From a phage: a stretch of DNA of 64,000 nucleotides. The number at the start of each line of letters is the position of its first letter. Positions within the stretch are counted from its first letter, which is position 1. Below, one piece after another: positions 7,744-63,922 of this stretch. The position numbers were made by a program, and so were the translations under genes. The stretch is taken from the NCBI GenBank assembly GCA_012365435.1, contig GCA_012365435.1_4518.1. The stretch is one strand, 5' to 3'. Below the pieces are notes generated by a model. That model was not told the origin of the DNA. It worked only from the letters and a program-made list of their open reading frames with translations, and made no database searches.

Positions 7744-7783
7744 ATCTTTTTAAACTTTTTTTGCCCTAAACGCACAAAAGGGA

Positions 7784-7801
7784 GACCGAAGTCTCCCTAA
7801 A
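7784..7801 (-). terminator. UUCG-tetraloop hairpin terminator
   Basis: gggagaccgaagtctccc; on - strand followed by UUUUGUGCGUUU. Confidence 0.55.
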
Positions 7802-9316: not shown

Positions 9317-9887
9317 AAAAGTTTCGGATTTGTTCCCAATTCAGAGAACGAAGATTATTACGAGAGTACTGAATTACTTCAATACCGGCTTGTTTAAGAA
9401 TGTCTGCCCAATTTTCAGGAGATCGGTCATATAATTCTGCATATACAACCTTTTTAATACCTGACTGTGTAATAGCTTTAGTGCAATCAGGACATGGAGA
9501 AAGCGTCGTATATAACGTAGCACCTTCAATAGAATTACCTTTACGAGCGGCAAACAAAATTGCGTTCAATTCTGCATGGATTTCATTATTAGCAGACCAT
9601 GCACTATGAGCAGCTCGGTGTTCTTTAGCCAAAACAAAATTATCGGCCCGTCCAAATGCTGTAGTGCCTTCTTTATGTCCAGCAATGATGACTGGGATTG
9701 GTTTATTCTTCAACCAACCATTTTCAGATGCATGTTCGCAACAGTTAACGCCACCTGCGGGTGAACCATTATATCCAGTAGAGATAATGCGCCCATCTTT
9801 TTCAATGACGGCGCCAACTTTCCATGAACAACACTTTGATTCTTGAGAAATCAGATATGCAATCTGAAGGTATGTGCTAGCTTTCAT
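9306..9887 (-). CDS. cd: dCMP deaminase, 193 aa
   Basis: HAE...PC..C zinc-binding cytidine/dCMP deaminase motifs (HAELNAI, CPDC); same length as T4 Cd. Confidence 0.92.
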   Translation of the reverse strand: MKASTYLQIAYLISQESKCCSWKVGAVIEKDGRIISTGYNGSPAGGVNCCEHASENGWLKNKPIPVIIAGHKEGTTAFGRADNFVLAKEHRAAHSAWSANNEIHAELNAILFAARKGNSIEGATLYTTLSPCPDCTKAITQSGIKKVVYAELYDRSPENWADILKQAGIEVIQYSRNNLRSLNWEQIRNFCGE

Positions 9888-10879
9888 TATTGAACCTTAT
9901 TAATATAAGTTAACAGCTCTTTAGTTTGTTCCCAACTGATGCACGCATCGGTAACGGAAACGCCATAGGACATATTATCAGAAATTTTTTGATTTCCTTC
10001 ATGTAGGAACGATTCTATCATAATTCCTTTGACCAAATCATTAGCTGCTAAATTTTTACCAATACCAATTTGATTGCTATAATGCCCATCAGCGTTTGCA
10101 TGGCTACAGTCAACCATTACATAATGATTCAGACCTACTGCCCTTGCTTTGTTAGAAGCTTCTTGAATATCAGAAGAATGATAGTTCGGGCCGTTGGTCC
10201 CGCCACGCAATACGATATGCGTATTCTGATTACCTTCAGCTTCAACAATGCCTACAGTACCATCGACGTCCATACCCATATACCGATGAGGCCAGGCGGC
10301 ACTATACATCGCGTCTGTAGCTACTTTAATAGAACCATTGGTTGCGTTCTTGAAGCCTACGCACATCGGTAGACCTGAAGCAATTTCACGATGTGTCTGA
10401 CTTTCAGTCGTACGGGCGCCAATAGCAACCCATGAGAAAATACCAGAAAGATACTTAATCGTGAATGGGTCTAATACTTCAGTTGCTAATGGAAGTCCCA
10501 TACGTAGAAGTTTACGACACAATGTTCGTGCAACTATAAGACCGTGGTTCATATCAAAACTTCCGTCAAGATATGGATCATTTACAAGACCTTTCCAACC
10601 TACGGTAGTTCGAGGCTTTTCAAAATAAACGCGCATCACTAACAGAACATTAGGAAGACGAGTTTGAAGTTCAGCCAGACGTTTGCCGTATTCAACAGCA
10701 GCAATAGGGTCATGAATTGAACAAGGACCTACAACAATAAGTTTGCGTGGGTCTTCACCGTTCATAATCGAATTAACTTGTTCGCGATGAGAAGCCACTT
10801 GTGATGCGTAAGCTTCCGACAAAGGAATAATCTCAGCCAGTTCTTTTGGAGAAATAAGTTTTCTGATGACAGGTAACAT
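9887..10879 (-). CDS. 3-deoxy-D-arabino-heptulosonate-7-phosphate (DAHP) synthase, class I (AroG-like), 330 aa
   Basis: GPCSIHDP, MRVYFEKPRTTVGWKGL and AIGARTTESQ.HRE.ASGL blocks nearly identical to E. coli AroG. Confidence 0.85.
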   Translation of the reverse strand: MLPVIRKLISPKELAEIIPLSEAYASQVASHREQVNSIMNGEDPRKLIVVGPCSIHDPIAAVEYGKRLAELQTRLPNVLLVMRVYFEKPRTTVGWKGLVNDPYLDGSFDMNHGLIVARTLCRKLLRMGLPLATEVLDPFTIKYLSGIFSWVAIGARTTESQTHREIASGLPMCVGFKNATNGSIKVATDAMYSAAWPHRYMGMDVDGTVGIVEAEGNQNTHIVLRGGTNGPNYHSSDIQEASNKARAVGLNHYVMVDCSHANADGHYSNQIGIGKNLAANDLVKGIMIESFLHEGNQKISDNMSYGVSVTDACISWEQTKELLTYINKVQ

Positions 10880-10999
10880 AACAATCCTTAGGAGATATAA
10901 ACAGATTCTGATTCAACAATACCTTTAACCGGATTAGATAGGCTAAGTTGGTAGTGCTCAGATTTATGACCATTCTCGATAGTAATGAGATAGCTCTCA

Positions 11000-13384: not shown

Positions 13385-13420
13385 AGGAGCATTATACTCT
13401 GCTCCTGAGAGTTTGTAAAC
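13385..13420 (-). promoter_or_regulatory. Early promoter (PeSL-like)
   Basis: - strand GTTTACA, 18 nt, TATAAT; -10 lies within inverted repeat aggagca/tgctcct. Confidence 0.55.
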
Positions 13421-17624: not shown

Positions 17625-17674
17625 TATATTCTCTCAATAGTGACTCATCCATGAGTCAATTATAAACAAAATTC

Positions 17675-20585: not shown

Positions 20586-21601
20586 CATTATGTTCAGATA
20601 AGGTCGTTAATCTTATCCCGGAATTATATCCAGCTGCATGTCACCATGCAGAGCAGACTATATCTCCAACTTGTTAAAGCAAGTTGTCTATCGTTTCGAG
20701 TCACTTGACCCTACTCCCTAAAGGGATAGTCGTTAGGCATTTATGTAGAACCAATTCCACTTATCAGATTTTACACGGTAAGTAACTAATCCTGATGAAA
20801 TTTCAAAATGTCTAGCCGCATCGGCTGCACATTCAAAAATAATCCCATCGCATGAAATCTTTTTGATGTTAGCTGGCTTTTTGCCTTTCATCTTTTCAGA
20901 TAGTTTAGTTTTAGTTTTTTCTGAATGTTTGTGATTAAAGAACGGGTTATTTTCACCTGAACGTTTTCGGCACTTTCCACAAGTATCAGCCGAAGATGGT
21001 ATGCGAACACCGCATTTACAAAACTTGTGGTTTTCTGGATTCCATCGGCCATTTTTACTTCCGTGTTTACCATAAAGAGCTTTCCGACCATCAGGACCAA
21101 GCTTAAGCATCTTAGCTTTAACAGTTTCAGCTCGTTTCTTAGCAATTTCTTCTTTTAATGGATGATTTGAAAGCACATCGCCAAAAGACGCATCAGCAAT
21201 ATTATATCCATTAATTTTAGAATTTAGCTCTTTAATCCAAAAATTTTCTCGTTCAATAATCAAATCTTTCTCATATGGAATTTCTTCCAGTACAGAGCAT
21301 TCAAAAACATTACCATGTTTATTAAAAGACCTTTGAAATTTTATAGAAGAGTGAACACCGTTTTCAAGGTCTTTAAAATGTCTCTTCCATCTTTTCTCAA
21401 AATCTTTAGCACTTCCAACATACACTTTACCGTTTAAAGTGTTTTTAATCTGATAAATTCCGCTTTTCATAAACACCTCTTTTTATATAGAAGTATTTAT
21501 TAAAGGGTAGTCCTACAATTTAGCACGGGATTGTCTACTAGAGAGGTCCCCCGTTTAGATAGATTACAAGTATAAGTCACCTTATACCTAGGCCTAAATT
21601 A
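20586..21601 (-). mobile_element. Group I self-splicing intron in td (1016 nt)
   Basis: 5' intron sequence TAATTTAGGCCT.GGTATAAGGTGACTTATACTTGTAATCTATCTAAACGGGG matches the T4 td intron start; exon junction restores a 286-aa TS; contains I-TevI ORF. Confidence 0.9.
20733..21470 (-). CDS. GIY-YIG homing endonuclease I-TevI, 245 aa
   Basis: MKSGIYQIKNTLNGKVYVGSAKDFEKRWKRH GIY-YIG N-terminus and C-terminal zinc finger/DNA-binding region; near-identical to T4 I-TevI. Confidence 0.92.
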   Translation of the reverse strand: MKSGIYQIKNTLNGKVYVGSAKDFEKRWKRHFKDLENGVHSSIKFQRSFNKHGNVFECSVLEEIPYEKDLIIERENFWIKELNSKINGYNIADASFGDVLSNHPLKEEIAKKRAETVKAKMLKLGPDGRKALYGKHGSKNGRWNPENHKFCKCGVRIPSSADTCGKCRKRSGENNPFFNHKHSEKTKTKLSEKMKGKKPANIKKISCDGIIFECAADAARHFEISSGLVTYRVKSDKWNWFYINA

Positions 21602-22985
<1,384 letters not shown>

Positions 22986-23050: not shown

Positions 23051-23413
23051 CTATTTTATTCCAAAAATTTCTTTAATTTCTGCAATCACATCTCGAGCAT
23101 TTTCCGTAGTCACTTCAAAGATGAGTGATTGTTTAGAAATAGACTCTGGAGATACCTCGATGAAGTGTTTAAACTCATCATCATAAAGCTCAAAATATGA
23201 ACCTGGCTTACCATCAAAACCGAATTCAGTACCGTCTCGCATAGTTACACGGGTTACACATTTATCATCATCATAATCTGTGTTCATGTCTTTTACAACA
23301 AAACTAGGACCATGAAGCTCAATCAAAGCCAGCATATCGGCGTTTTGTGGGCATTCATTGGCGAAGATAGCTTTACATTCTGGATTGATGATATAAGTTT
23401 TTCCAATTTTCAT
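23051..23413 (-). CDS. Hypothetical protein, 120 aa (paralogue of 23475..23861)
   Basis: Shares IGK.YIINP...FANEC...HGPSFVV...VTRVTM.DGTE...YFE.Y..EFK.F.EV with neighbour. Confidence 0.55.
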   Translation of the reverse strand: MKIGKTYIINPECKAIFANECPQNADMLALIELHGPSFVVKDMNTDYDDDKCVTRVTMRDGTEFGFDGKPGSYFELYDDEFKHFIEVSPESISKQSLIFEVTTENARDVIAEIKEIFGIK

Positions 23414-23950: not shown

Positions 23951-23968
23951 GGGAGACCGAAGTCTCCC
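23951..23968 (-). terminator. UUCG-tetraloop terminator downstream of gene 32
   Basis: gggagaccgaagtctccc; on - strand followed by UUUUGAGUAU. Confidence 0.6.
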
Positions 23969-27257: not shown

Positions 27258-30200
27258 ATGGCCGACATCAAACGTAAGTTCAGAGCCGAAGACGGTCTGG
27301 ACGCCGGTGGCGACAAGATTGTTAACGTAGCATTAGCCGACCGTACAGTAGGTACTGATGGCGTAAACGTTGACTTCCTGGTACAAGAAAACACCGTTCA
27401 AGTATATGATTCTACGCGTGGATACAACAAAGGATTTGTTGTTCTTTATGACAACCGTTTATATCAAGCAATAAATGATATCGTGTCTCCTTCCGGGGCA
27501 TTTAACCTTTTACAATGGCGTGCAGTTCGTACTGATGCACAATGGATAACTGTCGCTTCTGGGACTTATCAACTTTCTTCAGGTGAATCTATTTCGGTTA
27601 ACACTGGTGCCGGCAATGATATGGTTTTCACGTTGCCGAATACGCCGGTTGATGGCGATACTGTTGTTTTGGCTGATATTGGCGGAAGAACCGGGACAGT
27701 TAAAGTACAGATTAACGCGTCTGTGCAGAGTATTTTAAACTTTAGAGGTGAACAGGTTCGTACAGTTTTAATGACGCGTCCGCGTTCACAACTATTGTTT
27801 GTGTTTAGTAATCGTTTGTGGCAGATGTATATTATCGATTATGGTAAAGAATCAATCACTGTTACACCTGCGACACCATATCAAGCACAAGCAAATGATT
27901 TTATCGTTCGTCGTTTTACTAGTGCAGCACCAATCAACATTACACTTCCACGTAATGCTAACAACGGTGATATAATCCACCTAGTTGATTTAGATAAATT
28001 AAACCCACTGTATCATACAATTGTTAAAACATTTGATGATACAACGTCTATTGGTGAAGTCGGGACTCATATTGCTGAAGGCAGAAATGACTCTGACGCG
28101 TTTTTTGTTTTTGATGCTGCAAATAGTTTATGGCGTATATGGGAAGGCGACCAGAAATCGCGTCTTCGTATTATCCGTGCGGATTCAAATATTCGTCCAA
28201 ATGAAGAAGTTCTTATCTTTGGCACAAATAACGCTACAACCGGAACTATTAATCTTACGCTGCCTACCGGAATTTTGAGTGGTGACACTGTTAAAATTTC
28301 AATGAACTACATGCGTAAAGGCCAAACAGTAAAAATTAAAGCTGCCGAAGGTGATACAATTGCTTCCACTGTTGCATTGCTTCAGTTCCCTAAACGTTCT
28401 GAATATCCACCTGATGCTCAATGGGTCTCTGTTACTGAACTAGAATTCAATGGCACTACTTCATATGTTCCTGTATTAGAATTAGCGTATATCGAAGACA
28501 CCGTTGCTGGTACACGTTATTGGGTTGTTCAACAAAACGTCCCAACCGTAGAACGTGTTGATGCTGGAACTGATGCTACACGAGCTCGTTTAGGTGTTAT
28601 TGCGCTTGCTACTCAAGCGCAAGCAAATGTTGATTTAGAGAATACTCCAGCTAAAGAAGTGGCTATTACTCCTGAAACGTTGGCAAATCGTACAGCAACT
28701 GAAGCTCGACGTGGTATCGCTAAAATTGCTACAACAGCACAAGTTAACCAGAATTCCACAGCAACATTTGTGGACGATACTATTGTTACGCCTAAAAAAC
28801 TAAATGAGCGTACAGCAACTGAAACTCGCCGTGGTCTTGCTGAAATTGCTACTCAGGCCGAAACCGATGCCGGTCTTGATGACACAACGATTATTACACC
28901 TAAGAAATTGCAGGCACGTCAGGGTTCTGAAACACTATCTGGTATAGTTAAATATGTATCAACTACTTCTGCTACTCCTGCTGAAACTCGTGGGACCGCA
29001 GGCACTAACGTTTATAATAAAACCGTAAATAATTTAACTATTTCTCCTAAAGCCCTTGACCAATATAAAGCAACTTATGCTCAACAAGGTGCAGTAATTT
29101 TAGCTGTCGATAGTGAAGTAATTGCTGGCCAATCTCAAGCAGGTTATTCTCATGCTGTAGTAACTCCTGAAACACTACATAAGAAAACTTCTACTGATGG
29201 ACGTATTGGTTTAATTGAAATTGCTACGCAAGCAGAAACTAATGCTGGGACTGATTATACACGTGCAGTAACGCCTAAGACGTTAAATGATAGGAGAGCG
29301 ACGGAAGGATTATCCGGCATAGCCGAACTTGCTACGCAAGTTGAATTTGATACTGGAACTGATGATACTCGTATCTCGACTCCACTGAAAATTAAAACTC
29401 ATTTTGATTCTTCTGACCGTACCAGTGTTAATTCTGATTCCGGACTTATTGAAGAAGGAACCTTGTGGAACCATTATACTCTTGATATTTCTAAAGCAAA
29501 TGAAACACAACGTGGTACACTTCGCGTAGCGACCCAGGCAGAATCTAATGCAGGAACTTTAGATGATGTTCTTATTACTCCTAAAAAGCTTTTAGGGACT
29601 AAGTCCACTGAAACGTCTGAAGGCGTAATTAAGGTTGCTACTCGGGCTGAAACTGTAACAGGAACTTCTGCTAATACTGCTGTATCGCCTAAGAATTTAA
29701 AATGGATTGTCCAGAATGAACCAACATGGGCTGCTACTACAGCAATTCGCGGATTCGTTAAAACTTCATCTGGTTCAATTACATTCGTTGGCAACGATAC
29801 TCAAGGTAGTACCCAGGACCTGAATCTTTACGAGAAAAATAGTTATGCTATTTCTCCATATGAATTAAACCGTGTATTAGCAAATTATTTGCCATTAAAA
29901 GCAAAAGCTGCTGACGCAAATTTATTGGATGGTCTAGATTCATCTCAGTTCATTCGTAGGGATATTGCACAGACGGTTAATGGTTCTTTAAGTCTTACTA
30001 AACAAACTAACCTGAGTGCCCCTCTTGTATCAACTAGTACTGCTACGTTTGGTGGTTCGGTATCTGCCAATAGTACATTAACTATTTCTAATACTGGAAC
30101 GGCAACTCGTCTGATTTTTGAGAAAGGACCTCAAACTGGAACTAACCCAGCGCAGACGATGAGTATCAGAGTTTGGGGAAATGAATTTGGTGGTGGTTCA

Positions 30201-31133
30201 GATACAACACGTTCTACTGTATTTGAAGTTGGTGATGAAACGTCTAATCATTTTTATTCTCAACGTAATAAAGATGGGAATATAGCGTTTAGCATTAATG
30301 GTACTGTAATGCCAATAAACATTAATGCTTCCGGTTTGATGAATGTTAATGGCGTTGCAACATTTGGTCGTTCAGTCACAGCCAATGGTGAATTCATTAG
30401 CAAGTCTGCAAATGCTTTCAGAGCAATTAGCGGTGATTACGGATTCTTTATTCGTAATGATGCTGCTAATACCTATTTTATGCTTACTGCATCCGGTGAT
30501 CAGACCGGTGGATTTAATGGATTACGTCCTTTGGCTATTAATAATGCATCTGGCCAAGTAACGATTGGTGAAGGCTTAATCATTGCCAAAGGTGCTACTA
30601 TAAATTCAGGCGGTTTAACTGTTAACTCGAGAATTCGTTCTCAGGGTTCTAAAACATCTGATTTATATACCCGGGCGCCAACATCTGATACCGTAGGATT
30701 CTGGTCAATTGATATTAACGATTCAGCCACTTATAACCAGTTCCCAGGTTATTTTAAAATGGTTGAAAAAACTAATGAAGTGACTGGGCTTCCATACTTA
30801 GAACGTGGCGAAGAAGTTAAATCTCCTGGTACACTGACTCAGTTTGGTAACACACTTGATTCACTTTACCAAGATTGGATTACTTATCCAACAACCCCAG
30901 AAGCACGTACAACCCGTTGGACTCGTACATGGCAGAAAACTAAAAATTCTTGGTCAAGTTTTGTTCAAGTATTTGATGGGGGTAACCCTCCTCAACCTTC
31001 TGATATTGGTGCTTTACCTTCTGATAATGCAACAATCGGAAACTTGACAATAAGGGATTTCTTAAGGATTGGTAATGTCCGCATTATTCCAGACCCTGTG
31101 AATAAATCTGTTAAATTCGAGTGGATTGAATAA
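27258..31133 (+). CDS. 34: Long tail fibre proximal subunit gp34, 1291 aa
   Basis: N-terminus MADIKRKFRAEDGLDAGGDKIVNVALADR matches T4 gp34; internal repeated tail-fibre motifs. Confidence 0.95.
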   Translation: MADIKRKFRAEDGLDAGGDKIVNVALADRTVGTDGVNVDFLVQENTVQVYDSTRGYNKGFVVLYDNRLYQAINDIVSPSGAFNLLQWRAVRTDAQWITVASGTYQLSSGESISVNTGAGNDMVFTLPNTPVDGDTVVLADIGGRTGTVKVQINASVQSILNFRGEQVRTVLMTRPRSQLLFVFSNRLWQMYIIDYGKESITVTPATPYQAQANDFIVRRFTSAAPINITLPRNANNGDIIHLVDLDKLNPLYHTIVKTFDDTTSIGEVGTHIAEGRNDSDAFFVFDAANSLWRIWEGDQKSRLRIIRADSNIRPNEEVLIFGTNNATTGTINLTLPTGILSGDTVKISMNYMRKGQTVKIKAAEGDTIASTVALLQFPKRSEYPPDAQWVSVTELEFNGTTSYVPVLELAYIEDTVAGTRYWVVQQNVPTVERVDAGTDATRARLGVIALATQAQANVDLENTPAKEVAITPETLANRTATEARRGIAKIATTAQVNQNSTATFVDDTIVTPKKLNERTATETRRGLAEIATQAETDAGLDDTTIITPKKLQARQGSETLSGIVKYVSTTSATPAETRGTAGTNVYNKTVNNLTISPKALDQYKATYAQQGAVILAVDSEVIAGQSQAGYSHAVVTPETLHKKTSTDGRIGLIEIATQAETNAGTDYTRAVTPKTLNDRRATEGLSGIAELATQVEFDTGTDDTRISTPLKIKTHFDSSDRTSVNSDSGLIEEGTLWNHYTLDISKANETQRGTLRVATQAESNAGTLDDVLITPKKLLGTKSTETSEGVIKVATRAETVTGTSANTAVSPKNLKWIVQNEPTWAATTAIRGFVKTSSGSITFVGNDTQGSTQDLNLYEKNSYAISPYELNRVLANYLPLKAKAADANLLDGLDSSQFIRRDIAQTVNGSLSLTKQTNLSAPLVSTSTATFGGSVSANSTLTISNTGTATRLIFEKGPQTGTNPAQTMSIRVWGNEFGGGSDTTRSTVFEVGDETSNHFYSQRNKDGNIAFSINGTVMPININASGLMNVNGVATFGRSVTANGEFISKSANAFRAISGDYGFFIRNDAANTYFMLTASGDQTGGFNGLRPLAINNASGQVTIGEGLIIAKGATINSGGLTVNSRIRSQGSKTSDLYTRAPTSDTVGFWSIDINDSATYNQFPGYFKMVEKTNEVTGLPYLERGEEVKSPGTLTQFGNTLDSLYQDWITYPTTPEARTTRWTRTWQKTKNSWSSFVQVFDGGNPPQPSDIGALPSDNATIGNLTIRDFLRIGNVRIIPDPVNKSVKFEWIE

Positions 31134-31141
31134 GAGGTATT

Positions 31142-32269
31142 ATGGAAAAATTTATGGCTAAGTTTGGACAAGGATACGTCCAAACGCCATTTTTATCGGA
31201 AAGCAATTCAGTACGATTTAAATTAAGCATAGCGGGCTCTTGCCCGCTATCAACATCTCCTGCTTATATTAAGTTCCAGGATAATCCACTTGGGTCCCAG
31301 GTTTTTTCCGTTGGATTAAACGTTCGTGTAATAAATCCTACAACAGGTGCAGTAGTTGAATCTAAGTCATATAATTTCTCTACTGAAAACGACGCCACGT
31401 CAAGTGCATTTGTTACTTTCATGGACACATATGCTTCAAATTTTATATTTGCTCTTGTTACTAATGCTAAAACAAACTTTCCACCTGAAGTTCTTGCATG
31501 GTTTACTAAAGCTGGGAGTTCTGCTATTCCATTAGCTCAACAAGTTTTAAATATAGTGGACATTTCTTATTCTGCATTTTATATTTCTGGTAAGAACGCT
31601 ATAGCATTAGAACATATTAAGTATAGTAATAAGAAAACTTCAACCAACTATAGTACACCACTTGATGTTGTGTACGACACGATCGATGATATTGGTGCTA
31701 CCGGCTTCCCTAGTCGTACGTACGAATCGACAGACACATTTTTATCTGCTGTTGGAGGTACTAATAATGAAATTAAAAGGATGCCTACAACGTCCATTAT
31801 TACACCTCTCGCTGGGTATAAATTGAAGCCTGGAGATTTCCTTTATATGAAATTCCAACTAATGGCCGATGCTGATTTGTTAGCACAAGGGACGACACGA
31901 CTTTCTATTCGTTTCTTTAAATCTCCTTCTACTTCACCTATTTCATTTAAGGATACAAACTTTGATGGGGCTGCAGGTGAATGGAAGATATATGAAGACT
32001 ATATAGAAATTCCTGCTGGTGCTGACGGGTTCACGATTTATTGTTATCGTACAGCTCCAGTCGGGCAAGGTGGATTAAGAAACGTTATATTCACTGAAGT
32101 ATCATGTAATGGAAGCGTTTCAAAACCTGCCGAGTTTGGTATAAACGGTATTCGTGTAAATTATGTTTCAGAATCTTTAAGTACCCCAGACATAATGACA
32201 CTACCTACTCAATCTTCAACTGATACTGGTAAGGTATTTGGACAAGAATTTAAAGAAGAATCAGAATAA
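31142..32269 (+). CDS. 35: Long tail fibre hinge protein gp35, 375 aa
   Basis: Position and length (T4 gp35 372 aa). Confidence 0.85.
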   Translation: MEKFMAKFGQGYVQTPFLSESNSVRFKLSIAGSCPLSTSPAYIKFQDNPLGSQVFSVGLNVRVINPTTGAVVESKSYNFSTENDATSSAFVTFMDTYASNFIFALVTNAKTNFPPEVLAWFTKAGSSAIPLAQQVLNIVDISYSAFYISGKNAIALEHIKYSNKKTSTNYSTPLDVVYDTIDDIGATGFPSRTYESTDTFLSAVGGTNNEIKRMPTTSIITPLAGYKLKPGDFLYMKFQLMADADLLAQGTTRLSIRFFKSPSTSPISFKDTNFDGAAGEWKIYEDYIEIPAGADGFTIYCYRTAPVGQGGLRNVIFTEVSCNGSVSKPAEFGINGIRVNYVSESLSTPDIMTLPTQSSTDTGKVFGQEFKEESE

Positions 32270-32274
32270 ATTTA

Positions 32275-32299
32275 GGGAGACTTCGGTCTCCCATTTTTG
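32275..32299 (+). terminator. UUCG-tetraloop terminator after gene 35
   Basis: gggagacttcggtctccc followed by atttttgt. Confidence 0.55.
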
Positions 32300-32307
32300 T
32301 ATAAATA
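32300..32307 (+). promoter_or_regulatory. Late promoter (TATAAATA) for gene 36
   Basis: Exact octamer about 25 nt upstream of gene 36 ATG. Confidence 0.7.
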
Positions 32308-32331
32308 TGGTATACATATAAGGAGACAACT

Positions 32332-32997
32332 ATGGCCGATTTAAAAGCTGGTAGTACAACTGGCGGTGCCGTTATATGGCATCAAGGTAATTTCCCTTTA
32401 ATGCCAGCAGGTGATGACGTCCTGTATAAAACGTTTAAACTCTATTCAGAATATAATAAACCACAAGCGGCTGATAACGATTTCGTTTCTAAAGCTAATG
32501 GTGGTACGTATGCCGCTCGAGTAACATTTAATAATGGTGTGCAAGTACCTTATGCCGTAAATAACACAAATCAAAGTGGTATTTATCCTGGCAATGGCGA
32601 TGCTGCTACTTTTGATACAGCAAATATTGATATTGTTTCATGGTATGGCATTGGTTTTAAATCATCACAAGGATCTGCAGGTAGAACTGTTGTTGTTAAC
32701 ACTCGTACTGGTGATATCAGCACTAAAGGTGGTATTTATGCAACTGGTCCTGTCCGTTCTAACGCTACTGCTCCGGTTGCAGCAAATGATCTCACAAGAA
32801 AAGATTATGTTGATGGACGAATAAATATTGTTACGGATAACGCAAATTCCCGTGTATTGCGTAAAGGCGATACCATGACTGGTACTTTAACAGCACCAAA
32901 CTTTTTCTCACAGAATCCGGCGTCTGAGGCTAATCATGTTCCTCGTTTCGACCAGATTGTAATTAAAGATTCTGTTCAAGATTTCGGCTATTATTAA
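32332..32997 (+). CDS. 36: Long tail fibre distal connector gp36, 221 aa
   Basis: Same length as T4 gp36, position. Confidence 0.88.
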
Positions 32998-33005
32998 GAG
33001 GACTT

Positions 33006-36000
33006 ATGGCTACATTAAAACAGATACAATTTAAAAGAAGCAAAGTAGCAGGAGTTAATCCTACTGCAGCACAATTAGCCGAAGGCGAATTAGCGATAAA
33101 CTTAAAAGATCGAACTCTTTTTACTAAAGATGACCTCGGTAATATTATTAGCCTAGGCTTTGCTAAGGGTGGGGATATTAACGGTAATGTAACTCAAAAC
33201 GGCGATTATACACAAACTGGAAAATTTAATTTAATTGGTCCGCAAATTGTAGCAAGCGGTGGATATATTGAGTTTAATTATCGTACGACTGGAAGCGGCT
33301 CGTGGTCTGGTCAACACGCTGCAAAAGCTCCAATTTTTGTAGATTTGAGCTCCGCTACTTCTACATCTGAATATAATCCTATAATTAAACAACGCTTTAA
33401 AGATGGAACTTTTTCATTAGGTACTTTAGTTTCTGAAGGTTCATTAAAATTCCATTACATTAATGAGGCAGGTGAATCTAAATATTGGACATTTGCGCGC
33501 TCAGGTAATTTTCAAGTTGATTCTGGTAATTTATTAGTATCTGGTGGGTATTTAGTCGCTCAGAATAATATTGAAACAAGAACAGGTTCTTTGATTGGTC
33601 CACAGGTTATTACTAAAAATATCAACTTGAGCTCTAAATCTTGGGCTACTAACACTGATATAGCTTATGACGTTGTTTCATTACCGACTTGGCAGTATAC
33701 TCCAACCGAAACGGATTTGGATACTAATGGTATAAACTACCTTCGTAAATTCCGCGGACATGTTTCTTCTGCTATTTTCCATGAAGTTGCTGATGCTCGT
33801 TCAGGTAAACCACAGAATATTTCGTATTGGACGGGACGTAATGCCGAAGTTTATCAATGGTCTTATACCACAGATGGGCGTATGTCTGTTGCTAATTCGA
33901 TAGGTATAGGTCTTGCTGATGTTGGTGACCAAGGACGTTATCCATTGGTTTCGTTTGGTAAAGGTATTGCAATTGGTGACAATGATACTGGTATTAAATG
34001 GGTTCGTGACGGTGTTATTGATTTGATTGCTAATGGTATTTCGTCCGGCACAATAATCAGTAATGGTATTAATAGTACAAAGAAATTGATGGTCGGTTAT
34101 AGTCGAGATTCTGGTTCTACTTGGGATTACCCAAATAACAACCAAGCAATGTTTACTGCGCGTACCGATGTTGATGGTAATAATAACGGCGATGGACAGA
34201 CTCATATCGGTTATAGCAGCAATGCCAAGATGTATCACTATTTCCGCGGTACAGGTCGTATGTCCGTTAGTATGGGCGATGGACTTCTTGTTGAGCCTGG
34301 CATTTTAGATATTAAAACCGGTTCTAATAGCGTTGCTATTAGAGCAGACGGAACAATTAACTCCACCCAACGTATTTCAATGCGTACGGGCTTGTTTTTA
34401 AATGGTGATGATAATACCAATGCTTTGTCATTTAAAGCGCCTACAGGTGTTGACGGGACAAAAACCATTACCTGGGATGCAGGTACTCGTAATGGTCAGA
34501 ATAAAAATACTGTAACCATTAAAGCATGGGGTAACTCATTTAACGCTGAAAAGGGCAATAGAGAAACTGTATTTGAAGTATCAGATTCACAAGGTTATTA
34601 TTTTTATGCTCAACGTACCAACCCGGCTTCTGGTGAAACAGTAGGTCCGGTTAACTTTAAATTTAACGGAACTGTCGAAACAGGCAATATCATAGGCCTT
34701 GGTAATATAAGTGCCTCCGGTACAGGTTCTTTTGGTGGCAATGTTACTATGTCTAACGGTTTGTTTGTCCAAGGTGGTTCTTCTATTACTGGACAAGTTA
34801 AAATTGGTGGAACAGCTGATGCATTAAGAATTTGGAATGCTGAATATGGCGCAATTTTCCGTCGTTCAGAAAGTAATCTTTATATTATCCCGACTCTTAA
34901 AGATGCTGGAGAATCAGGCGGTATAAGTAATCTTAGACCATTGATAATAGAACTGAACACTGGCACAGTTAAAATGTCGCATGATGTTCATTTAGGAGAT
35001 TCTGGATCTGGTACAGGATTATTACAAGTAAGTAATAGTCTTAAAACTATTAAAATGATATGTCCAGTAACTATTAATGAACGTAATGCAGCGCTTACTC
35101 TAGATTCTCCTTCATCTTCTTCTGCTAATTATTTACAGGGTTCTAAAGCTGGAACTAGATCGTGGTATGTTGGTCTCGGTGGCTCTGGAAATGATTTATC
35201 AGTTTATAGTCAATCTTATGGACATGGTCTTGTTATAAGCGATAATTTCGTGTCAATTAGTAAACCTCTTAAAGTTGGAAATGCACAACTAGGAACTGAC
35301 GGTAATATTACTGGTGGTTCTGGTAATTTTGCCAACTTAAATAGTACAATTGAATCACTTAAAACTGATATTGTCTCAAGTTATCCAATTGGTGCTCCGA
35401 TTCCTTGGCCTACTGATACACCTCCTGAAGGTTATGCCATAATGGAAGGTCAAACATTTGATGTCGACTTGTATCCTAAGTTAGCTGCAGTGTATCCTTC
35501 CGGCGCTCTGCCTGATATGCGTGGTCAAACTATCAAGGGTAAACCATCTGGGCGTGCTGTATTAAGTACAGAAGCAGACGGTGTTAAGTCACATAGCCAT
35601 AGTGCAAGTGCATCAAGCACAGATTTGGGTACTAAGACCACTTCTAGTTTTGATTACGGTAGCAAAACGACTTCAAGCTTTGATTATGGTACTAAAACCA
35701 GTAATACTACTGGTAACCATAGCCATACAGTGAGTGGTACTACGAGTACGGCAGGTAATCATAATCACAGAGACGGCCGTCGATTTAACCCCAGTATTTT
35801 TAAAGATACTTATCAATATGGTTATACAAGCTCAGGTCAAAATACCTGGGGTGTACAAGGCTCAGTAGGTATGTCTATGGGGTGGTTAGCTAATACCAGT
35901 ACAGATGGTAATCATAGCCATACTTGGTCAGGAACCACGAGTACTACAGGTAACCATGCTCATACAGTAGGTATTGGCGCCCATGCTCATACAGTGGGTA

Positions 36001-36125
36001 TTGGTGCTCATTCCCATACTGTTGCAATTGGTTCCCATGGACACACAATAACTGTAAATGCCACAGGAAATACAGAAAACACAGTTAAAAACGTTGCTTT
36101 TAACTATATCGTTCGTTTAGCATAA
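33006..36125 (+). CDS. 37: Long tail fibre distal subunit / receptor-binding protein gp37, 1039 aa
   Basis: Position, length, C-terminal His-X-His repeats ([21 protein letters not shown]) typical of the T4 gp37 tip. Confidence 0.95.
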
Positions 36126-36130
36126 GGAGA

Positions 36131-36149
36131 AGGGACTTCTGTCCCTTTT
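36131..36149 (+). promoter_or_regulatory. Hairpin between SD-like ggag and the gene 38 AUG (split ribosome-binding site)
   Basis: gggacttctgtccc stem-loop followed by tttttataatATG; only SD-like sequence lies 5' of the hairpin. Confidence 0.45.
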
Positions 36150-36155
36150 TATAAT

Positions 36156-36707
36156 ATGAAACTCTATCACTATTATTTTGACACTAAAGAATTTTACAAA
36201 GAAGAAAATTATAAACCATTAAAAGGCGTAGGATTTCCGGCTCATTCAACACCAAAAAAACCTTTAGTCCCTAAAGAAGGCTATGCTGTTATATTTGACG
36301 AACGCGAGCAAGAATGGGTATATGTTGAAGACCATCGTGGAAAAACAGTATGGACTTATGATAAGCAAAAAATTGTTATTGACACTCCAGGTGCTCTTCA
36401 AAATGTTACTACAGAAGAACCTGGCGAATTTGACATTTGGACCGGCGACGGGTGGAAGGAAGATGAAGCATATAAACGCGTAGTTCAACGTGATAAGAAA
36501 ATTCATGAACTCTATAAATTATTCAGTGTTTTAAGTTCTCTTATTGACGCAGAGGTTGCTAATAGAGAAGAAAAACGAAAATTTAAAGAGCTCAAAAAAT
36601 TCTTTGCCCTTTTAGAAAAACATGAACATCTTGGCGGTGAATTCCCTAAATTCCCTGACCTTGAAAACAAATCTATTGTCAAAGCGATTATAAATATCTT
36701 TAAGTAA
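36156..36707 (+). CDS. 38: Tail fibre assembly chaperone gp38 (T4 type), 183 aa
   Basis: Same length and N-terminus MKLYHYYFDTKEFYKEENYKP as T4 gp38. Confidence 0.9.
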   Translation: MKLYHYYFDTKEFYKEENYKPLKGVGFPAHSTPKKPLVPKEGYAVIFDEREQEWVYVEDHRGKTVWTYDKQKIVIDTPGALQNVTTEEPGEFDIWTGDGWKEDEAYKRVVQRDKKIHELYKLFSVLSSLIDAEVANREEKRKFKELKKFFALLEKHEHLGGEFPKFPDLENKSIVKAIINIFK

Positions 36708-36716
36708 GGAGGTATT

Positions 36717-37376
36717 ATGGCAACACCAAAAGTATCATTTTCGCCTAGTGATATTCTATTTGGGTTGCTAGATCGTATTTTCAAAGATAACGCTACTGGA
36801 AAGGTTTTAATGTCTCGAGTAGCGGTAATTATTCTTTTGTTCCTAATGGCACTAATATGGTACAAAGGAAGTATTTTGCTGGATTATTATGTAAGAGCTA
36901 AGTATGATACTTATACTGAAATAATCCAAAAAGAACGAGCTTTACGTTTTGAATCTGCGGCTCTAGAACAACTGCAAATAGTTCATATCTCATCTGGTGC
37001 AGATTTTAGTGCTGTGTATTCTTTCAGACCTAAAAACTTAAATTATTTTGTCGACCTTATAGCTTATGAAGGCAAACTACCTAGCACAATTTCTGAAAAG
37101 TCCCTTGGCGGATTCCCAGTGGATAAAACGGCCGATGAATATATAATTCATTTAAGTGGCCGTCATTTCTCGTCTAAATCAGAATTTGCATTTTTGCCTA
37201 CAAAATCTAAAACTGCCGAACTTTCTTATATGTATAGTTGTCCATACTTTAATTTGGATAACATCTATGCTGGAACTGTGACGATGTATTGGTATAAGGG
37301 GAATAATATACTTGAGGAAGATCGCTTAGCGGCTATATGCAACCAAGCGGTCCGAATACTAGGAAGGGCTAAATAA
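36717..37376 (+). CDS. t: Holin t, 219 aa
   Basis: Close match to T4 holin, single TMD near N-terminus. Confidence 0.93.
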   Translation: MATPKVSFSPSDILFGLLDRIFKDNATGKVLMSRVAVIILLFLMALIWYKGSILLDYYVRAKYDTYTEIIQKERALRFESAALEQLQIVHISSGADFSAVYSFRPKNLNYFVDLIAYEGKLPSTISEKSLGGFPVDKTADEYIIHLSGRHFSSKSEFAFLPTKSKTAELSYMYSCPYFNLDNIYAGTVTMYWYKGNNILEEDRLAAICNQAVRILGRAK

Positions 37377-39510: not shown

Positions 39511-40143
39511 TCACAGTACGTTAGTTACAAGGGTAATGATTTCTTTAGACACATTAGGGAAGTCGATGTAAGTATATTTACCACCGATCTTAATCTTAAC
39601 ATCATTTTCAAGAGAAGTAAACAGCTTTGATTCAGTTTCTGACATGTTGTATGCAAAGATTCTAAGAGAACCATCTCGACGAATTTCAATTTGGCGAATG
39701 CCTAGAACTCGTTTAGCGAATCGAACTTCTAAGTTACTACGGTTTTCACCAATTTCTTTAACTTCAACTTTATCTTTAATATTTTCAAAAACAAAGTTTG
39801 CTAATTCATGCATTTCAGGAGTAACTCCACGTGCTTTTCTGGTGTTACGTTTCTGAAGAAGTTCTGGAGCATTTTCTTGAGCAAATAGGTCTGCAGCTTT
39901 TTGGATAATATCCATTGCTTCGCCTGTTGCTACAAGTCCATCACCGGATTTTTCGACTAAACCTTTCTTAATCAATACACCAATGTTAGAGTTAACAACC
40001 GATGCATTGTATTCTGCTTCCAGAGCTTCACGGACATTGGCAGCAGTGGTGAAGTTGTTCTTAATGATATAAACCATTATTGCAGCAGTTTTTTCATTCA
40101 GAGCGTTTTCAGAAGCTTTGATGATGTAAGTAACTTTAGACAT
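39511..40143 (-). CDS. motA: Middle transcription activator MotA, 211 aa (start at MSKVTYIIK)
   Basis: Strong match to T4 MotA from the internal Met; listed ORF has a 20-codon upstream extension. Confidence 0.88.
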   Translation of the reverse strand: MSKVTYIIKASENALNEKTAAIMVYIIKNNFTTAANVREALEAEYNASVVNSNIGVLIKKGLVEKSGDGLVATGEAMDIIQKAADLFAQENAPELLQKRNTRKARGVTPEMHELANFVFENIKDKVEVKEIGENRSNLEVRFAKRVLGIRQIEIRRDGSLRIFAYNMSETESKLFTSLENDVKIKIGGKYTYIDFPNVSKEIITLVTNVL

Positions 40144-40174: not shown

Positions 40175-40211
40175 ATAGGTCTATAATATCGTGTTTGAAG
40201 CAAAAGTAAAC
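40175..40211 (-). promoter_or_regulatory. Early promoter for motA
   Basis: - strand GTTTAC, 17 nt, TATTAT. Confidence 0.5.
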
Positions 40212-40220
40212 TGTTTTTGT

Positions 40221-40255
40221 GAGAAAAAAATGCACAAAAGGGAGCTTCGGCTCCC
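40221..40255 (-). terminator. Hairpin plus U-run terminator downstream of gene 52
   Basis: gggagcttcggctccc with A-run on + strand (U-run on - strand). Confidence 0.55.
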
Positions 40256-40331
40256 TAATCATGTTTGTCCAACCAATACAGCCAAATCACTAGTGCAGCT
40301 ATTGCACCGAGAAATCCTAAGGCTAGGGCAC

Positions 40332-42724: not shown

Positions 42725-42974
42725 TTTGTGTTCCTCATGTTTCAGTAGGACTACTATACCATAATCCTACCGTGTTGTAAACAATTAAATTACATTAAAA
42801 TATGTTAAAGCCAACCATGTTCCAGTGAACGAACATGCAATGTAAAAACCAGTATCACAAATTGTTTTTAGTACAATAAGAAGTGCATTTTTCATAAGTA
42901 CCTCAACACAATTGAAAATATTATACAAATCATTGGGATACTAAGCAACCATATTCCTATCCACATTTTAGAGC

Positions 42975-52477: not shown

Positions 52478-52536
52478 ATTATTCTCCTCTGGTTGATATG
52501 GTTATAATATCAAAACCGGAGGAGAAGTAAACAACT

Positions 52537-60041: not shown

Positions 60042-60055
60042 TGTAGAAACAAAAA

Positions 60056-60077
60056 AGGAATCCCGAAGGATTCCTTA
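60056..60077 (-). terminator. Hairpin terminator downstream of soc
   Basis: aggaatcccgaaggattcct with A-run on + strand. Confidence 0.5.
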
Positions 60078-63262: not shown

Positions 63263-63922
63263 TTAACCTCGATTCATAAATGCATTAAATATTTGGTCAT
63301 CAACAGAAATTTCTAATTCGACTTCAATTGCTTCAACCTTTTCTTCAGGTGGTAATTCGTATCCACACACTACAATTTTTTCATCGATATCAAAATATAC
63401 AGAAGCAATACGATTAATGTTACTTTCAGTTAAGTCTAAATCAACATCAACATCTTTTTGACCTACACTTAAAGGATAACTAATACGAGTTATTTTATTA
63501 TCTTTAACAAAGAGTCCACCAACATACTCTGTACTACGTTTGAAGTTTACACGTTTCCGAATTGAAAGATATGATACATCTTTACCGTGAGCTCGGCTCA
63601 TAGGACATAATGAATAGCTAGAATAAGAGATGTCAAATCCTACACCTTCAATATGAGCCAACGTGTCATGAGTAAACCAATTATAATCATATGCCAAATC
63701 CATTAAATTATAATATGTGAAAGGCACTGGATTAACATCATATGTTGTACCTTTAAAATCTGCCCAGGCGACGATTTCGTTATCTTTAACAATTACAAAA
63801 ATTACACCAATATGATATCCGTTATTATTTTCATTCGGTGTTATATTATAACATTGTGCATTAGGAAATTTACCATATTTAAATGGCGCGTTTTTGTGCA
63901 TGTAATAAATCATATTATTCAC
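63263..63922 (-). CDS. Hypothetical protein, 219 aa
   Basis: ORF. Confidence 0.5.
   Translation of the reverse strand: MNNMIYYMHKNAPFKYGKFPNAQCYNITPNENNNGYHIGVIFVIVKDNEIVAWADFKGTTYDVNPVPFTYYNLMDLAYDYNWFTHDTLAHIEGVGFDISYSSYSLCPMSRAHGKDVSYLSIRKRVNFKRSTEYVGGLFVKDNKITRISYPLSVGQKDVDVDLDLTESNINRIASVYFDIDEKIVVCGYELPPEEKVEAIEVELEISVDDQIFNAFMNRG

Follow-up and report, generated by a model that had tools for sequence, protein, structure and literature searches.

Twenty-five sites on the minus strand of the window (the whole 64,000-nt stretch of phage DNA analysed here) appear from their sequence to be ordinary early promoters (Pe) of the sigma70-dependent kind, in a T4-type phage that resembles RB69, and would be transcribed early in vivo. 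Probably, these Pe are read by the host polymerase, about half of them carry a hairpin that acts on read-through RNA, and the joints in which they lie recombine as PeSL elements do. We observed directly that the motif and the hairpins are enriched, that the hairpins covary, that the sites are orthologous to promoters predicted in RB69 and that crossovers fall inside promoters; early transcription, and whatever the hairpin does as RNA, we infer.

The window corresponds to the early-gene region of a Mosigvirus (RB69-like) and is ~98% identical to Escherichia phage 55, Mizar and SHSML-52-1. A sequence-only reading of this DNA had proposed that many minus-strand intergenic sites share a GTTTAC/TAnnAT architecture, and the pattern is real: GTTTAC-N16-19-TANNAT has 18 matches, 17 of them on the minus strand, against 1.18 +/- 1.05 expected from shuffles (highest 4). 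All 22 sites listed in that reading contain a promoter-like -35/-10 pair of sigma70 type, at the positions given for them or a few bases away, followed by a Shine-Dalgarno (SD) sequence and ATG 15-44 nt on. The exact motif is present in 14 of the 22, but the other eight are close variants, with GTTTAT, GTGTAC, TTGTAC or ATGTAC as the -35, or GTTTAC paired with a TATAGT -10 (Table 1); for one of them, listed as 42735-42775, the -35 (42782-42777) falls just outside the range. Three sites absent from the list (388-359, 23051-23022 and 37713-37684) were added to give the curated set of 25, in which 16 are exact matches and nine are close variants, whose -35 has one to two mismatches or whose -10 is TAnnGT. 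An exact match at 39622-39593 was rejected as a promoter, being internal to motA at a place with no RB69 prediction, and the sole plus-strand match (63545-63575), probably a chance occurrence, was left out.

The sites fit the T4-type Pe, which is defined by a GTTTAC(a) -35, a spacer of 17-18 nt and a TAnnAT -10, often with a TGn or GT-rich extended -10. Most also show, when read by eye, an A-rich UP-like region upstream of the -35 (aaaaagta, aaaaaca, ataaaata). All 25 lie on the minus strand, with the SD and ATG of an early-region gene 15-44 nt downstream of the -10, and the upstream stop codon is at most 5 nt from the -35 in 16 and overlaps it in nine. The T4-type early promoter identity proposed in the sequence-only reading is supported by orthology, at a constant offset of 14 nt, of 23 of the 25 sites to early promoters predicted in RB69 as 51-nt HMM hits (Nolan et al., 2006; PMC1524935, Additional file 3). 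The RB69 promoters likewise have a GTTTAC -35 and an A-rich upstream region and lie 5' of early genes and novel ORFs; that work deals with promoters only, and embedded inverted repeats and a role at indel junctions are not noted there. In the GenBank record of SA79RD, the orthologues bear the label 'T4 early promoter', and at three of them a 'rho-independent terminator' feature overlaps the promoter. A generic sigma70 scan based on TTGACA gave no overall enrichment (70 vs 63; 56 vs 67), the T4-specific GTTTAC form alone being enriched. MotA-dependent middle promoters, which lack a -35 and have a box (a/t)(a/t)(a/t)TGCTTtA that is centred at -30 and precedes the -10 by 11-13 nt, are ruled out since every site has a -35; the only spacer containing such a box (TGCTTCA, in P40211) has it 7 nt from the -10, the wrong spacing. 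No Rfam family reached its gathering score anywhere in the window.

Table 1. Putative early promoters of the window with associated hairpins and terminators (fold energies in kcal/mol; promoters named by the first base of the -35)
Feature	Coordinates	Strand	Promoter form	Downstream gene	Stem, hairpin or terminator	Remarks
P388	359..388	-		alt.-3	weak stem GGATG/CATCC	RB69 Pe:125323; SA79RD: T4 early promoter
P6214	6184..6214	-	19-nt spacer			in segment replaced in RB69 and OLB35; paralogue of P53483
P7299	7258..7299	-		30.7	11-bp stem TTGGTACAGGT/ACCTGTACCAA around -10; -18.0, z -5.4	promoter and terminator annotations overlap at the orthologue in the SA79RD record
P7743	7715..7743	-		30.8	no significant in-promoter stem	
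Classical terminator	7780..7797	-			GGGAGACttcgGTCTCCC + TTTTG	37 nt upstream of P7743
P11294	11265..11294	-		cd.2	13-pair hairpin needing G.U; RNA -16.9, z -5.0	
P13420 (focal)	13391..13420	-	GTTTAC-18-TATAAT	ORF231c-like 99-aa ORF		-35 13420-13415, -10 13396-13391; RB69 Pe:136687 orthologue; TAG of upstream ORF overlaps first -35 base
P13420 hairpin	13385..13406	-			AGGAGCA/TGCTCCT, 7 bp; RNA -12.2, z -2.9	8-nt loop with most of -10
P13420 alternative pairing	within spacer	-			AACTCT/AGAGT	
P14826	14797..14826	-		alc	spacer palindrome AACACC/GGTGTT	
P16009	15980..16009	-		rnlA	spacer palindrome TACCACAA/TTGTGGTA; z -3.0	
P23051	23014..23051	-	GTATAC-18-TACCAT	frd.1	13-bp stem ACAGGGTAATGGT/ACCATTACCCTGT; -21.4, z -5.2	no orthologue among RB69 predicted early promoters
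P23475	23437..23475	-	GTTTAT-18-TATAGT	extra FRD2 paralogue (23051-23413), putative target	10-bp stem GATAGGGCTA/TAGCCCTATC around -10; -18.7, z -7.6	
P23919	23891..23919	-		frd.2	no in-promoter stem	
Classical terminator	23951..23968	-			GGGAGACttcgGTCTCCC + TTTTG	31 nt upstream of P23919
P27216	27187..27216	-		rnh	no hairpin	first in its transcription unit
P37713	37684..37713	-		asiA		RB69 Pe:160217
P40211	40183..40211	-		motA		segment through ATGTCTAAA duplicated in some relatives
Classical terminator	40239..40256	-			AGGGAGCcgaaGCTCCCT + TTTG	27 nt upstream of P40211
P42521	42485..42521	-	TTGTAC-18-TATAAT	ndd	8-bp stem TGAGAGCA/TGCTCTCA around -10; -13.9, z -3.6	paralogue of P13420, with compensatory changes in stem
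P42782	42745..42782	-	GTTTAC with TATAGT	ndd.1	12-pair hairpin with G.U; RNA -16.1, z -5.0	
P43294	43258..43294	-	GTTTAC with TATAGT	ORF270c	8-bp stem TAGGACTA/TAGTCCTA around -10; -13.2, z -4.0	
P51953	51919..51953	-	ATGTAC-18-TACTAT	cef	7-bp stem GGTCTAT/ATAGACC; -9.5, z -4.7	
P52532	52482..52532	-		motB.2	anti-SD TTCTCCTCCGGTT (52526-52514) pairs SD region AACCAGAGGAGAA (52494-52482)	
P53483	53454..53483	-	TTGTAC-18-TATAAT	motB		3' partner of NHEP36 chimeric promoter
P54040	54011..54040	-		motB.1	spacer palindrome CAACCA/TGGTTG	5' partner of NHEP36 chimeric promoter
P57182	57154..57182	-	GTGTAC-17-TATTAT	srd		
P57923	57894..57923	-	GTGTAC-18-TATTAT	modA		
P58560	58532..58560	-		modB		
P60041	60012..60041	-		mrh.2		
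Classical terminator	60055..60076	-			AAGGAATCCttcgGGATTCCTT + TTTTG	13 nt upstream of P60041

Inverted repeats around or beside the -10, which the sequence-only reading had ascribed to the sites in general, occur well above chance but at only about half of them. In 12 of the 25, the stretch from the -35 to +14 contains a perfect stem of 6 bp or more (1.8 expected; maximum 7 in 500 shuffles), and the mean minimum free energy is -8.86 kcal/mol, as compared with -3.33 +/- 0.39 in shuffles that keep composition and the -10; fold z-scores range from -2.9 to -7.6 at ten sites. Beyond the 12 promoters with a stem, four have an upstream terminator and about nine have neither. In the commonest type, the arms bracket the -10 hexamer. 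Stems are found in 10 of the 16 promoters abutting the upstream ORF vs two of the nine others, a trend that is not significant (Fisher p = 0.10); four of those nine (P7743, P23919, P40211 and P60041) have a classical terminator 13-37 nt upstream.

These could be plain early promoters in which the repeats have no function of their own, having arisen through promoter duplication and from partial palindromy of the sequence around a TATA-rich -10, a reading that we regard as unlikely. It draws on the 3' sequence TATAGTAGTCCTATC, which is common to ~11 RB69 promoters, most of them also with the 5' arm TAGGACTA, so that many 'stems' would be copies of one ancestor. The 3' arm is kept even without the 5' arm (RB69 Pe:72354 and Pe:58138), suggesting another role, e.g. 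as initial transcribed region or 5' UTR. Also in its favour, a spacer palindrome in fixed register was not robust across 41 family promoters, a register one column off pairing better. However, unrelated arms form stems at the same place (13 bp in P23051, 11 bp in P7299 and 8 bp in P42521), the fold energies lie far outside the shuffles, and paralogues differ by compensatory double changes (GGGCT/AGCCC vs GGACT/AGTCC; GAGAGC/GCTCTC vs AGGAGC/GCTCCT). Paralogues were examined because the Mosigvirus orthologues are too conserved (0-3 changes per promoter) to be informative on covariation. When the 41 family promoters are aligned in a -10-centred register, pairing is 59.8%, against 55.3 +/- 1.5 in shuffles (reached in 0 of 500) and 34-48% in slid registers, with a covariation score of 0.29 vs 0.23 +/- 0.02; much of this family-wide signal comes from paralogous copies with the same arms, a kinship for which the shuffles do not correct.

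The preferred reading places the hairpin in RNA, and several observations hint at sense RNA, although the strand-specificity tests are no more than suggestive. The hairpins of P11294 and P42782 are strong only as sense RNA (as DNA, z is -2.4 sense and -1.4 antisense for the former, and -1.4 and -0.7 for the latter). Four stem substitutions noted by eye in orthologue alignments (P23475, P7299 and P13420) yield G.U pairs, and internal stem mismatches are G.T in six cases and A.C in one; a comparison of sense with antisense fold energy gave p = 0.065, each strand being favoured at 28 sites. Palindromes working as DNA, whether as cruciforms or operators tuning promoter opening or shut-off, or as endonuclease VII targets serving as recombination hot spots, are disfavoured by the hairpins that need G.U pairs and are weak as DNA and by the excess of G.T over A.C. 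Most stems are nevertheless perfect palindromes that fold equally on both DNA strands with the -10 in the loop, crossovers are located inside these sequences, and the mechanism by which T4 early promoters are shut off is still unknown (Hinton review). The arms differ among promoters, so that no operator is common to them. Stems of 6-10 bp with 8-nt loops are, as a general rule, poor at cruciform extrusion. Overall, we hold a DNA-level role to be very unlikely.

Termination is part of the published PeSL definition, and the hairpins might be genuine intrinsic terminators closing each upstream cassette, as proposed for the RB49 PeSLs; one RB49 PeSL stem-loop was as effective as rrnB T1 in lowering lacZ read-through. 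In the SA79RD record, the promoters orthologous to P7299, P11294 and P13420 are overlapped by WebGeSTer and TransTermHP features, and textbook terminators stand just upstream of four other promoters. However, the stems inside promoters are short, AT-rich and followed by an A-rich tract (3' flank TCAAAACAA) rather than a U-tract, and a terminator scan called none of them on the sense strand, P43294 and P51953 being called in antisense orientation only. We consider intrinsic termination improbable. The PeSL-like character claimed in the sequence-only reading holds for the layout of promoter, stem-loop and SD/ATG, but its terminator half lacks sequence support on the transcribed strand.

A further proposal is that the hairpins are mainly translational, masking the ribosome-binding site (RBS) in read-through RNA so that translation is efficient only from the transcript of the gene's own promoter. 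At seven of 48 RB69 promoters, a spacer anti-SD (TTCTCCTC...) forms 7-14 bp with the downstream SD, where shuffles predict 0.9 such promoters and partner permutation 2.1. Outside the SD, these duplexes show covariation, and the T4 ipII promoter is arranged in the same way. There is also precedent in T4 e, soc, 49 and I-TevI, where a promoter lies inside a hairpin that folds in the long read-through RNA and not in the promoter-proximal RNA (review PMC3014915). The anti-SD/SD subtype (P52532 and RB69 Pe:7443, 20537, 61376 and 64934) is the same device. The internal promoters of T4 are, however, late or middle and provide temporal control (PMC3014915), whereas those of the window are early with most hairpins off the SD. 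P52532 is the sole window site of this type, its duplex having one mismatch where RB69 has 13 perfect pairs, and among stems of the commonest type the end of the 3' arm, near +3, is separated from the SD by 10 nt or more, which leaves the RBS unsequestered. A mainly translational role seems distinctly unlikely.

In the mechanism that we favour, unmodified host RNA polymerase would read each sigma70-type Pe immediately after infection. Each Pe occupies a very short intergenic joint in which the stop codon of the upstream gene abuts or overlaps the -35 and its last codons supply the A-rich stretch. The 5' arm of the hairpin lies in the spacer and the 3' arm in the spacer, just past the -10 or, rarely, on the downstream SD. 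As the local transcript would start at or beyond the 3' arm, the hairpin could not form in it, and only read-through RNA from upstream promoters would contain the whole structure. There it may act as an attenuator or pause site, or as a 3'-end stabilizer for the upstream cistron, and a hairpin covering the SD would be a translational block. Promoters with space upstream bear a classical terminator there instead of an in-promoter hairpin. Since the same joint of ~40-80 bp recurs at many gene boundaries, it probably serves as a site of homologous recombination, by which promoter-plus-ORF cassettes would be inserted, deleted or duplicated with both neighbouring genes intact.

Exchange of this kind is seen among relatives. 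NHEP36, which does not have motB.1, retains a chimeric P54040/P53483 promoter at the deletion point. SHSML-52-1, APCEc01 and ECCR664 contain an extra 216-bp ORF between duplicated P40211-to-ATG segments, 84 bp of the window aligning twice. The extra FRD2 paralogue is located between P23475 and P23051. The mobile cassettes suggested in the sequence-only reading are borne out to this extent, with gain and loss through crossovers inside promoters, but breakpoints are not statistically enriched at promoters: comparison with eight relatives gave 16 indels or replacements, of which only four have breakpoints in these promoters, a proportion close to that of promoter-bearing gene junctions. The remaining events were homing-endonuclease or intron insertions or lay at other junctions, and the specific signal is the repeat-flanked signature only. 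A few promoters, then, have served as crossover points for swapping neighbour genes, a pattern known from other T4-type phages. The proposed clustering around small unknown ORFs likewise applies to about half of the sites, but 13 of the 25 precede named early genes (alc, rnlA, rnh, asiA, motA, ndd, cef, motB, motB.1, motB.2, srd, modA and modB).

The PeSL arrangement has been described for RB49/phi1, T4/PST and KVP40/nt-1, and by their layout the hairpin promoters of the window appear to match this class, specifically in its RB49/phi1 form (Arbiol et al., 2010; PMC2839356). Common to both are a strong sigma70-type Pe with an AT-rich upstream region, a stem-loop between the -35 and -10 or over the -10, an SD/ATG at the 3' end, and flanking copies that recombine with gain or loss of an ORF, leaving a chimeric element. 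The window differs in its T4-type GTTTAC -35 (TTGACA in RB49/phi1), in its varied, AT-rich stems of 6-13 bp (polyG/polyC in RB49/phi1), in that only about half of its promoters have a stem, and in that many have a conserved early gene downstream and not an ORFan. The published PeSL class is further marked by terminator activity, by excised mini-circles and by a preference for ORFans in hyperplastic regions. The promoter consensus TTTACW-N17-TAYWAT is shared with the T4/PST PeSLs and the T-even IP-locus elements (Comeau et al., 2014, PMC4122927; for the latter, Repoila et al., 1994, as cited in PMC2839356). P7743, P23919, P40211 and P60041 follow the T4/PST layout, with the stem-loop just upstream of the promoter, whereas most window hairpins are inside it. 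A further likeness is a degraded or duplicated copy of the -35, seen in SHSML-52-1 at the P23919 orthologue. In-promoter stems of at least 6 bp are barely enriched in T4 (three of 20 promoters vs 2.3 expected), where the fold energy is -5.4 vs -3.3 +/- 0.4.

The phenomenon is largely known, and what has not previously been reported for RB69-type phages or Mosigvirus is the in-promoter, RB49-style layout; within the library searched, no paper was found naming both 'PeSL' and 'RB69'. The analysis provides a checkable early-promoter catalogue for an RB69-type phage, extends the PeSL promoter-hairpin idea to Mosigvirus and documents concrete crossover products, namely a chimeric promoter and duplicated joints. 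These may be of use in annotation, in the design of insertion points for phage engineering and in reading gene-content differences among therapeutic T4-like phages, while the understanding of T4-type transcription is unchanged. More tentatively, and with considerable doubt, the in-promoter hairpins could serve early genes generally as a 'transcript-origin discriminator', in which read-through RNA folds and local RNA does not. If so, the folded RNA would be attenuated, 3'-capped after processing or, when the SD is included, blocked in translation. Cassettes would then be insulated from their neighbours, and the device of T4 e, soc, 49 and I-TevI would extend from late to early promoters. The palindromes could, in addition, double as preferred crossover sites that keep the cassettes exchangeable.

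The promoter architecture proposed by the sequence-only reading, a GTTTAC -35 element and a TAnnAT -10 element on the minus strand, is borne out. The pattern GTTTAC-N16-19-TANNAT occurs 18 times in the window against 1.18 +/- 1.05 expected, with 17 matches on the minus strand, and a -35/-10 pair followed by a Shine-Dalgarno (SD) sequence and an ATG is found at all 22 sites listed by that reading. Fourteen of these carry the exact pattern and eight are close variants (-35 GTTTAT, GTGTAC, TTGTAC or ATGTAC; -10 TATAGT); the range 42735-42775 does hold a promoter, but its -35 falls 2-7 nt outside. With three further sites absent from the list, the curated set comprises 25, each named P plus its -35 start coordinate. 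A generic TTGACA/TATAAT scan showed no enrichment in this AT-rich DNA, the curated sites ranking as its top matches; thus, the signal is specific to the T4-type consensus. A further exact match (GTTTAC-18-TAAGAT) within the motA coding region has neither an RB69 prediction nor an SD and ATG downstream, and is probably due to chance or else a minor internal promoter.

The 6-kb piece around the focal site, P13420, is 97-98% identical to Escherichia phage 55, Mizar, Shigella phage SHSML-52-1 and many other Mosigvirus genomes, while the identity of RB69 to the window is roughly 82-97%, varying by segment. Annotation of SHSML-52-1 and RB69 places two early/middle gene blocks in the window, both on the minus strand. 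Coordinates of 57-58 predicted early promoters of RB69 were published by Nolan and colleagues (Nolan et al., 2006; PMC1524935). Mapping of each window site onto RB69 placed 23 of the 25 on these predictions, at a constant 14-nt offset of their 51-nt model, and gave no counterpart for P23051 and P6214. Similarly, the GenBank record of SA79RD labels orthologues 'similar to phage T4 early promoter'. Judged by orthology, the curated sites are the early promoters of this phage, of an already known kind.

The intergenic joints are extremely compact: no more than 5 nt separate the stop codon of the upstream ORF from the -35 at 16 of 25 sites, the first base of the -35 being overlapped at nine (e.g. 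TAGTTTAC), and the -10 is 15-44 nt from the ATG. The A-rich, UP-like stretch 5' of the -35 is therefore coding sequence, belonging to the final codons of the gene before it. The proposed association with small unknown ORFs holds for about half of the promoters, but the remainder lie 5' of alc, rnlA, rnh, asiA, motA, ndd, cef, motB, motB.1, motB.2, srd, modA and modB.

Positions of gene blocks, promoter sites and neighbouring features (window coordinates unless marked RB69; Pe:number, early promoter predicted in RB69)
Feature	Position	Strand	Source or remark
Early/middle block, alt to rnh	about 1-27200	-	SHSML-52-1, RB69 annotation
Tail-fibre and holin genes, between both blocks	27258-37376	+	SHSML-52-1, RB69 annotation
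Early/middle block, asiA to sp	about 37400-64000	-	SHSML-52-1, RB69 annotation
Stop codon/-35 overlap sites	13420, 6214, 16009, 23051, 23475, 58560, 388, 57923, 51953	-	
Sites added to the list	388-359, 23051-23022, 37713-37684	-	
motA-internal match	39593-39622	-	
Anti-SD promoters	52482-52526; RB69 Pe:7443, 20537, 61376, 64934, 58138		anti-SD at spacer start, 8-14 bp paired with SD of downstream gene
Promoter sub-family, TGCTT(T/C)AAACATG spacer	40183-40211 (P40211); RB69 Pe:55018, 146013, 162713		
Terminator 5' of motA promoter	40239-40256		
td insertion	20586-21602	-	1017 bp
ORF in td insertion	20733-21476		
DAHP synthase gene	9887-10879	-	insertion 9891-10984
Homing-endonuclease genes of relatives, absent from window	17625-17670, 25644, 48757		LF82-5 nrdA/nrdB gap; SHSML-52-1 near gene 59; phiE142 adjoining gene 39

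Inverted repeats, described earlier as a general feature of these promoters, do exceed chance, but at about half of the sites only. The region from the -35 end to 14 nt beyond the -10 was folded for each site and compared with 500 shuffles keeping the -10. Perfect stems of 6 bp or more are present at 12 of 25 sites (1.8 expected, maximum 7), and the mean fold energy (MFE) is -8.86 kcal/mol against -3.33 +/- 0.39 in shuffles and -4.3 in random windows. The P13420 hairpin, AGGAGCA/TGCTCCT, reaches -12.2 kcal/mol (z = -2.9), and nine other sites have z of -3.0 to -7.6, among them P23051 with a stem of 13 bp, P7299 with 11 bp and P23475 with 10 bp. In the commonest layout (class A) a stem brackets the -10, its 3' arm at about -7 to +3; class B has a small palindrome within the spacer, often around AAGGA; and in class C an anti-SD in the spacer (TTCTCCTC...) pairs with the downstream SD. 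Of the 16 promoters abutting the upstream ORF, 10 have an in-promoter stem, as against 2 of 9 others, a trend only (Fisher p = 0.10). P7743, P23919, P40211 and P60041 have no in-promoter stem; each is preceded, at a distance of 13-37 nt, by a textbook terminator made up of a GC stem, a loop of ttcg or cgaa, and a T-run. The terminator 5' of the motA promoter shares its stem with the upstream joint copy of APCEc01, the loop being inverted, cgaa in the window and ttcg in APCEc01, which suggests a hairpin loop flip. The P40211 spacer, with those of three RB69 promoters, defines a sub-family, one member of which drives motA itself; its core is MotA-box-like, yet lies 7 nt from the -10 as against 11-13 nt in middle promoters.

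Since only 0-3 base changes separate the promoter orthologues of eight Mosigvirus relatives, covariation was sought in the paralogous family (55 RB69 predictions and two window-only sites). Every promoter with an 18-nt spacer, 41 in all, was aligned without selection; many are copies of one another, a kinship that the shuffles ignore. In this alignment, the -10-centred register had 59.8% paired cells (55.3 +/- 1.5% shuffled; 34-48% in slid registers) and a covariation score of 0.29 (0.23 +/- 0.02 shuffled; 0.11-0.21 slid), values reached by 0 of 500 shuffles. A fixed spacer-palindrome register was not robust. Compensatory pairs between paralogues include GATAGGGCTA/TAGCCCTATC versus TAGGACTA/TAGTCCTA, TGAGAGCA/TGCTCTCA (P42521) versus AGGAGCA/TGCTCCT (P13420), and AACCA/TGGTT versus ATCC/GGAT.

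The evidence leans, not conclusively, towards hairpins acting as sense-strand RNA. Among single mismatches inside stems, with Watson-Crick pairs on both sides, six are G.T and one is A.C; four stem substitutions at P23475, P7299 and P13420, read by eye from orthologue alignments, give G.U pairs; and the hairpins of P42782 and P11294 have strength only when folded as sense RNA (z = -5.0; DNA of either strand, -0.7 to -2.4). On the other side, most stems, being perfect palindromes, have equal stability as DNA of either strand, and the sense-antisense MFE difference is marginal (p = 0.065), 28 sites favouring each strand. One RB49 stem-loop of the promoter-early stem-loop (PeSL) class was shown to be an 'effective terminator' (Arbiol et al., 2010; PMC2839356), and 'rho-independent terminator' features of SA79RD (WebGeSTer or TransTermHP) overlap the orthologues of P7299, P11294 and P13420. 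However, A-rich sequence (TCAAAACAA) rather than a U-tract lies 3' of the in-promoter stems, and a terminator scan called none of them on the minus strand, two being called in antisense orientation only; that property is thus unsupported by the sequence. A weaker role as attenuator, pause site or 3'-end protector is possible.

For the anti-SD class, the spacer forms a duplex of 7 bp or more with the promoter's own translation-initiation region in 7 of 48 RB69 promoters (13, 11, 14, 10, 8, 7 and 7 bp), where spacer shuffles predict 0.9 and partner permutation 2.1. The non-SD parts of these duplexes covary. The sole window member of the class is P52532 (motB.2). The ribosome-binding site would be masked in read-through RNA only. 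The device recurs at the T4 ipII promoter, and it follows the promoter-within-hairpin principle of T4 e, soc, 49 and I-TevI (PMC3014915), here at early promoters.

Alignment of the window to SHSML-52-1, RB69, APCEc01, ECCR664, NHEP36, phiE142, LF82-5, SA79RD, mar005P1 and OLB35 revealed 16 separate indels or replacements in early regions. The suggestion of mobile cassettes is upheld by four with breakpoints in promoters, but roughly a quarter of gene junctions bear a promoter, so that 4/16 is no enrichment. NHEP36 lacks motB.1 (493 bp) and retains a chimeric promoter: P54040 supplies its upstream half including GTTTAC, and P53483 the -10-proximal and downstream half. The two arms of the chimeric hairpin can still pair (ATCC...GGAT). 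In SHSML-52-1, APCEc01 and ECCR664, an additional ORF of 216 bp lies between two copies of the P40211 joint, spanning GTTTAC to ATGTCTAAA, so that an 84-bp stretch of the window finds two matches. An additional FRD2 paralogue is present in the window between P23475 and P23051 (both paralogues confirmed by Pfam), with junctions at the hairpins' 3' edge (TCAAAACAAATGA), and RB69 has an extra ORF245c adjoining the P23919 orthologue. The remaining twelve comprise four homing-endonuclease or intron insertions, a DAHP-synthase gene and promoter-free junctions. The specific signature is the repeat-flanked cassettes and the chimeric promoter, exactly the model drawn for RB49 ORF192 (PMC2839356) and T4/PST (Comeau et al., 2014; PMC4122927); on these alignments, a minority of promoters demonstrably mediated cassette exchange.

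Other rearrangements were also observed. In SHSML-52-1, the -35 and spacer start of the P23919 orthologue are tandemly duplicated (16 bp, TTGTTTACTTCTTCCC twice), resembling the 'degraded/slipped' PeSL copies of Comeau and colleagues (PMC4122927). The td (thymidylate synthase) gene is interrupted by an insertion that RB69, SHSML-52-1 and four further relatives lack. This insertion is a group I intron, matching Rfam RF00028 with 36.1 bits (E = 3e-7), a value under the gathering score, and its ORF encodes an I-TevI-like GIY-YIG homing endonuclease. The DAHP synthase gene (aromatic amino-acid pathway), an auxiliary metabolic gene without flanking promoters, lies between cd and cd.2 with a 19-bp junction overlap; some Mosigvirus genomes carry it, and RB69 and mar005P1 lack it. 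Free-standing homing-endonuclease genes of relatives are absent from the window at three places.

In T4, stems of at least 6 bp occur in 3 of 20 early-promoter candidates from two regions (2.3 expected), with an MFE of -5.4 against -3.3 +/- 0.4 kcal/mol; the in-promoter layout is thus more developed in Mosigvirus. Hairpins in T4 are clearest at the internal-protein genes, in line with the remarks of Repoila and Arbiol (PMC2839356). The Mosigvirus layout is like that of RB49/phi1, while the consensus is T4's. Among the papers searched, none names both PeSL and RB69, and the class is not known to have been reported for RB69-type phages. The sequence-only reading was correct in its recognition, with some overstatement, and the finding is an ordinary one: at many sites promoter and hairpin are combined in one joint in the manner of PeSLs, which are a known class, and our best guess is that their hairpins would exert an RNA-level effect on read-through transcripts.
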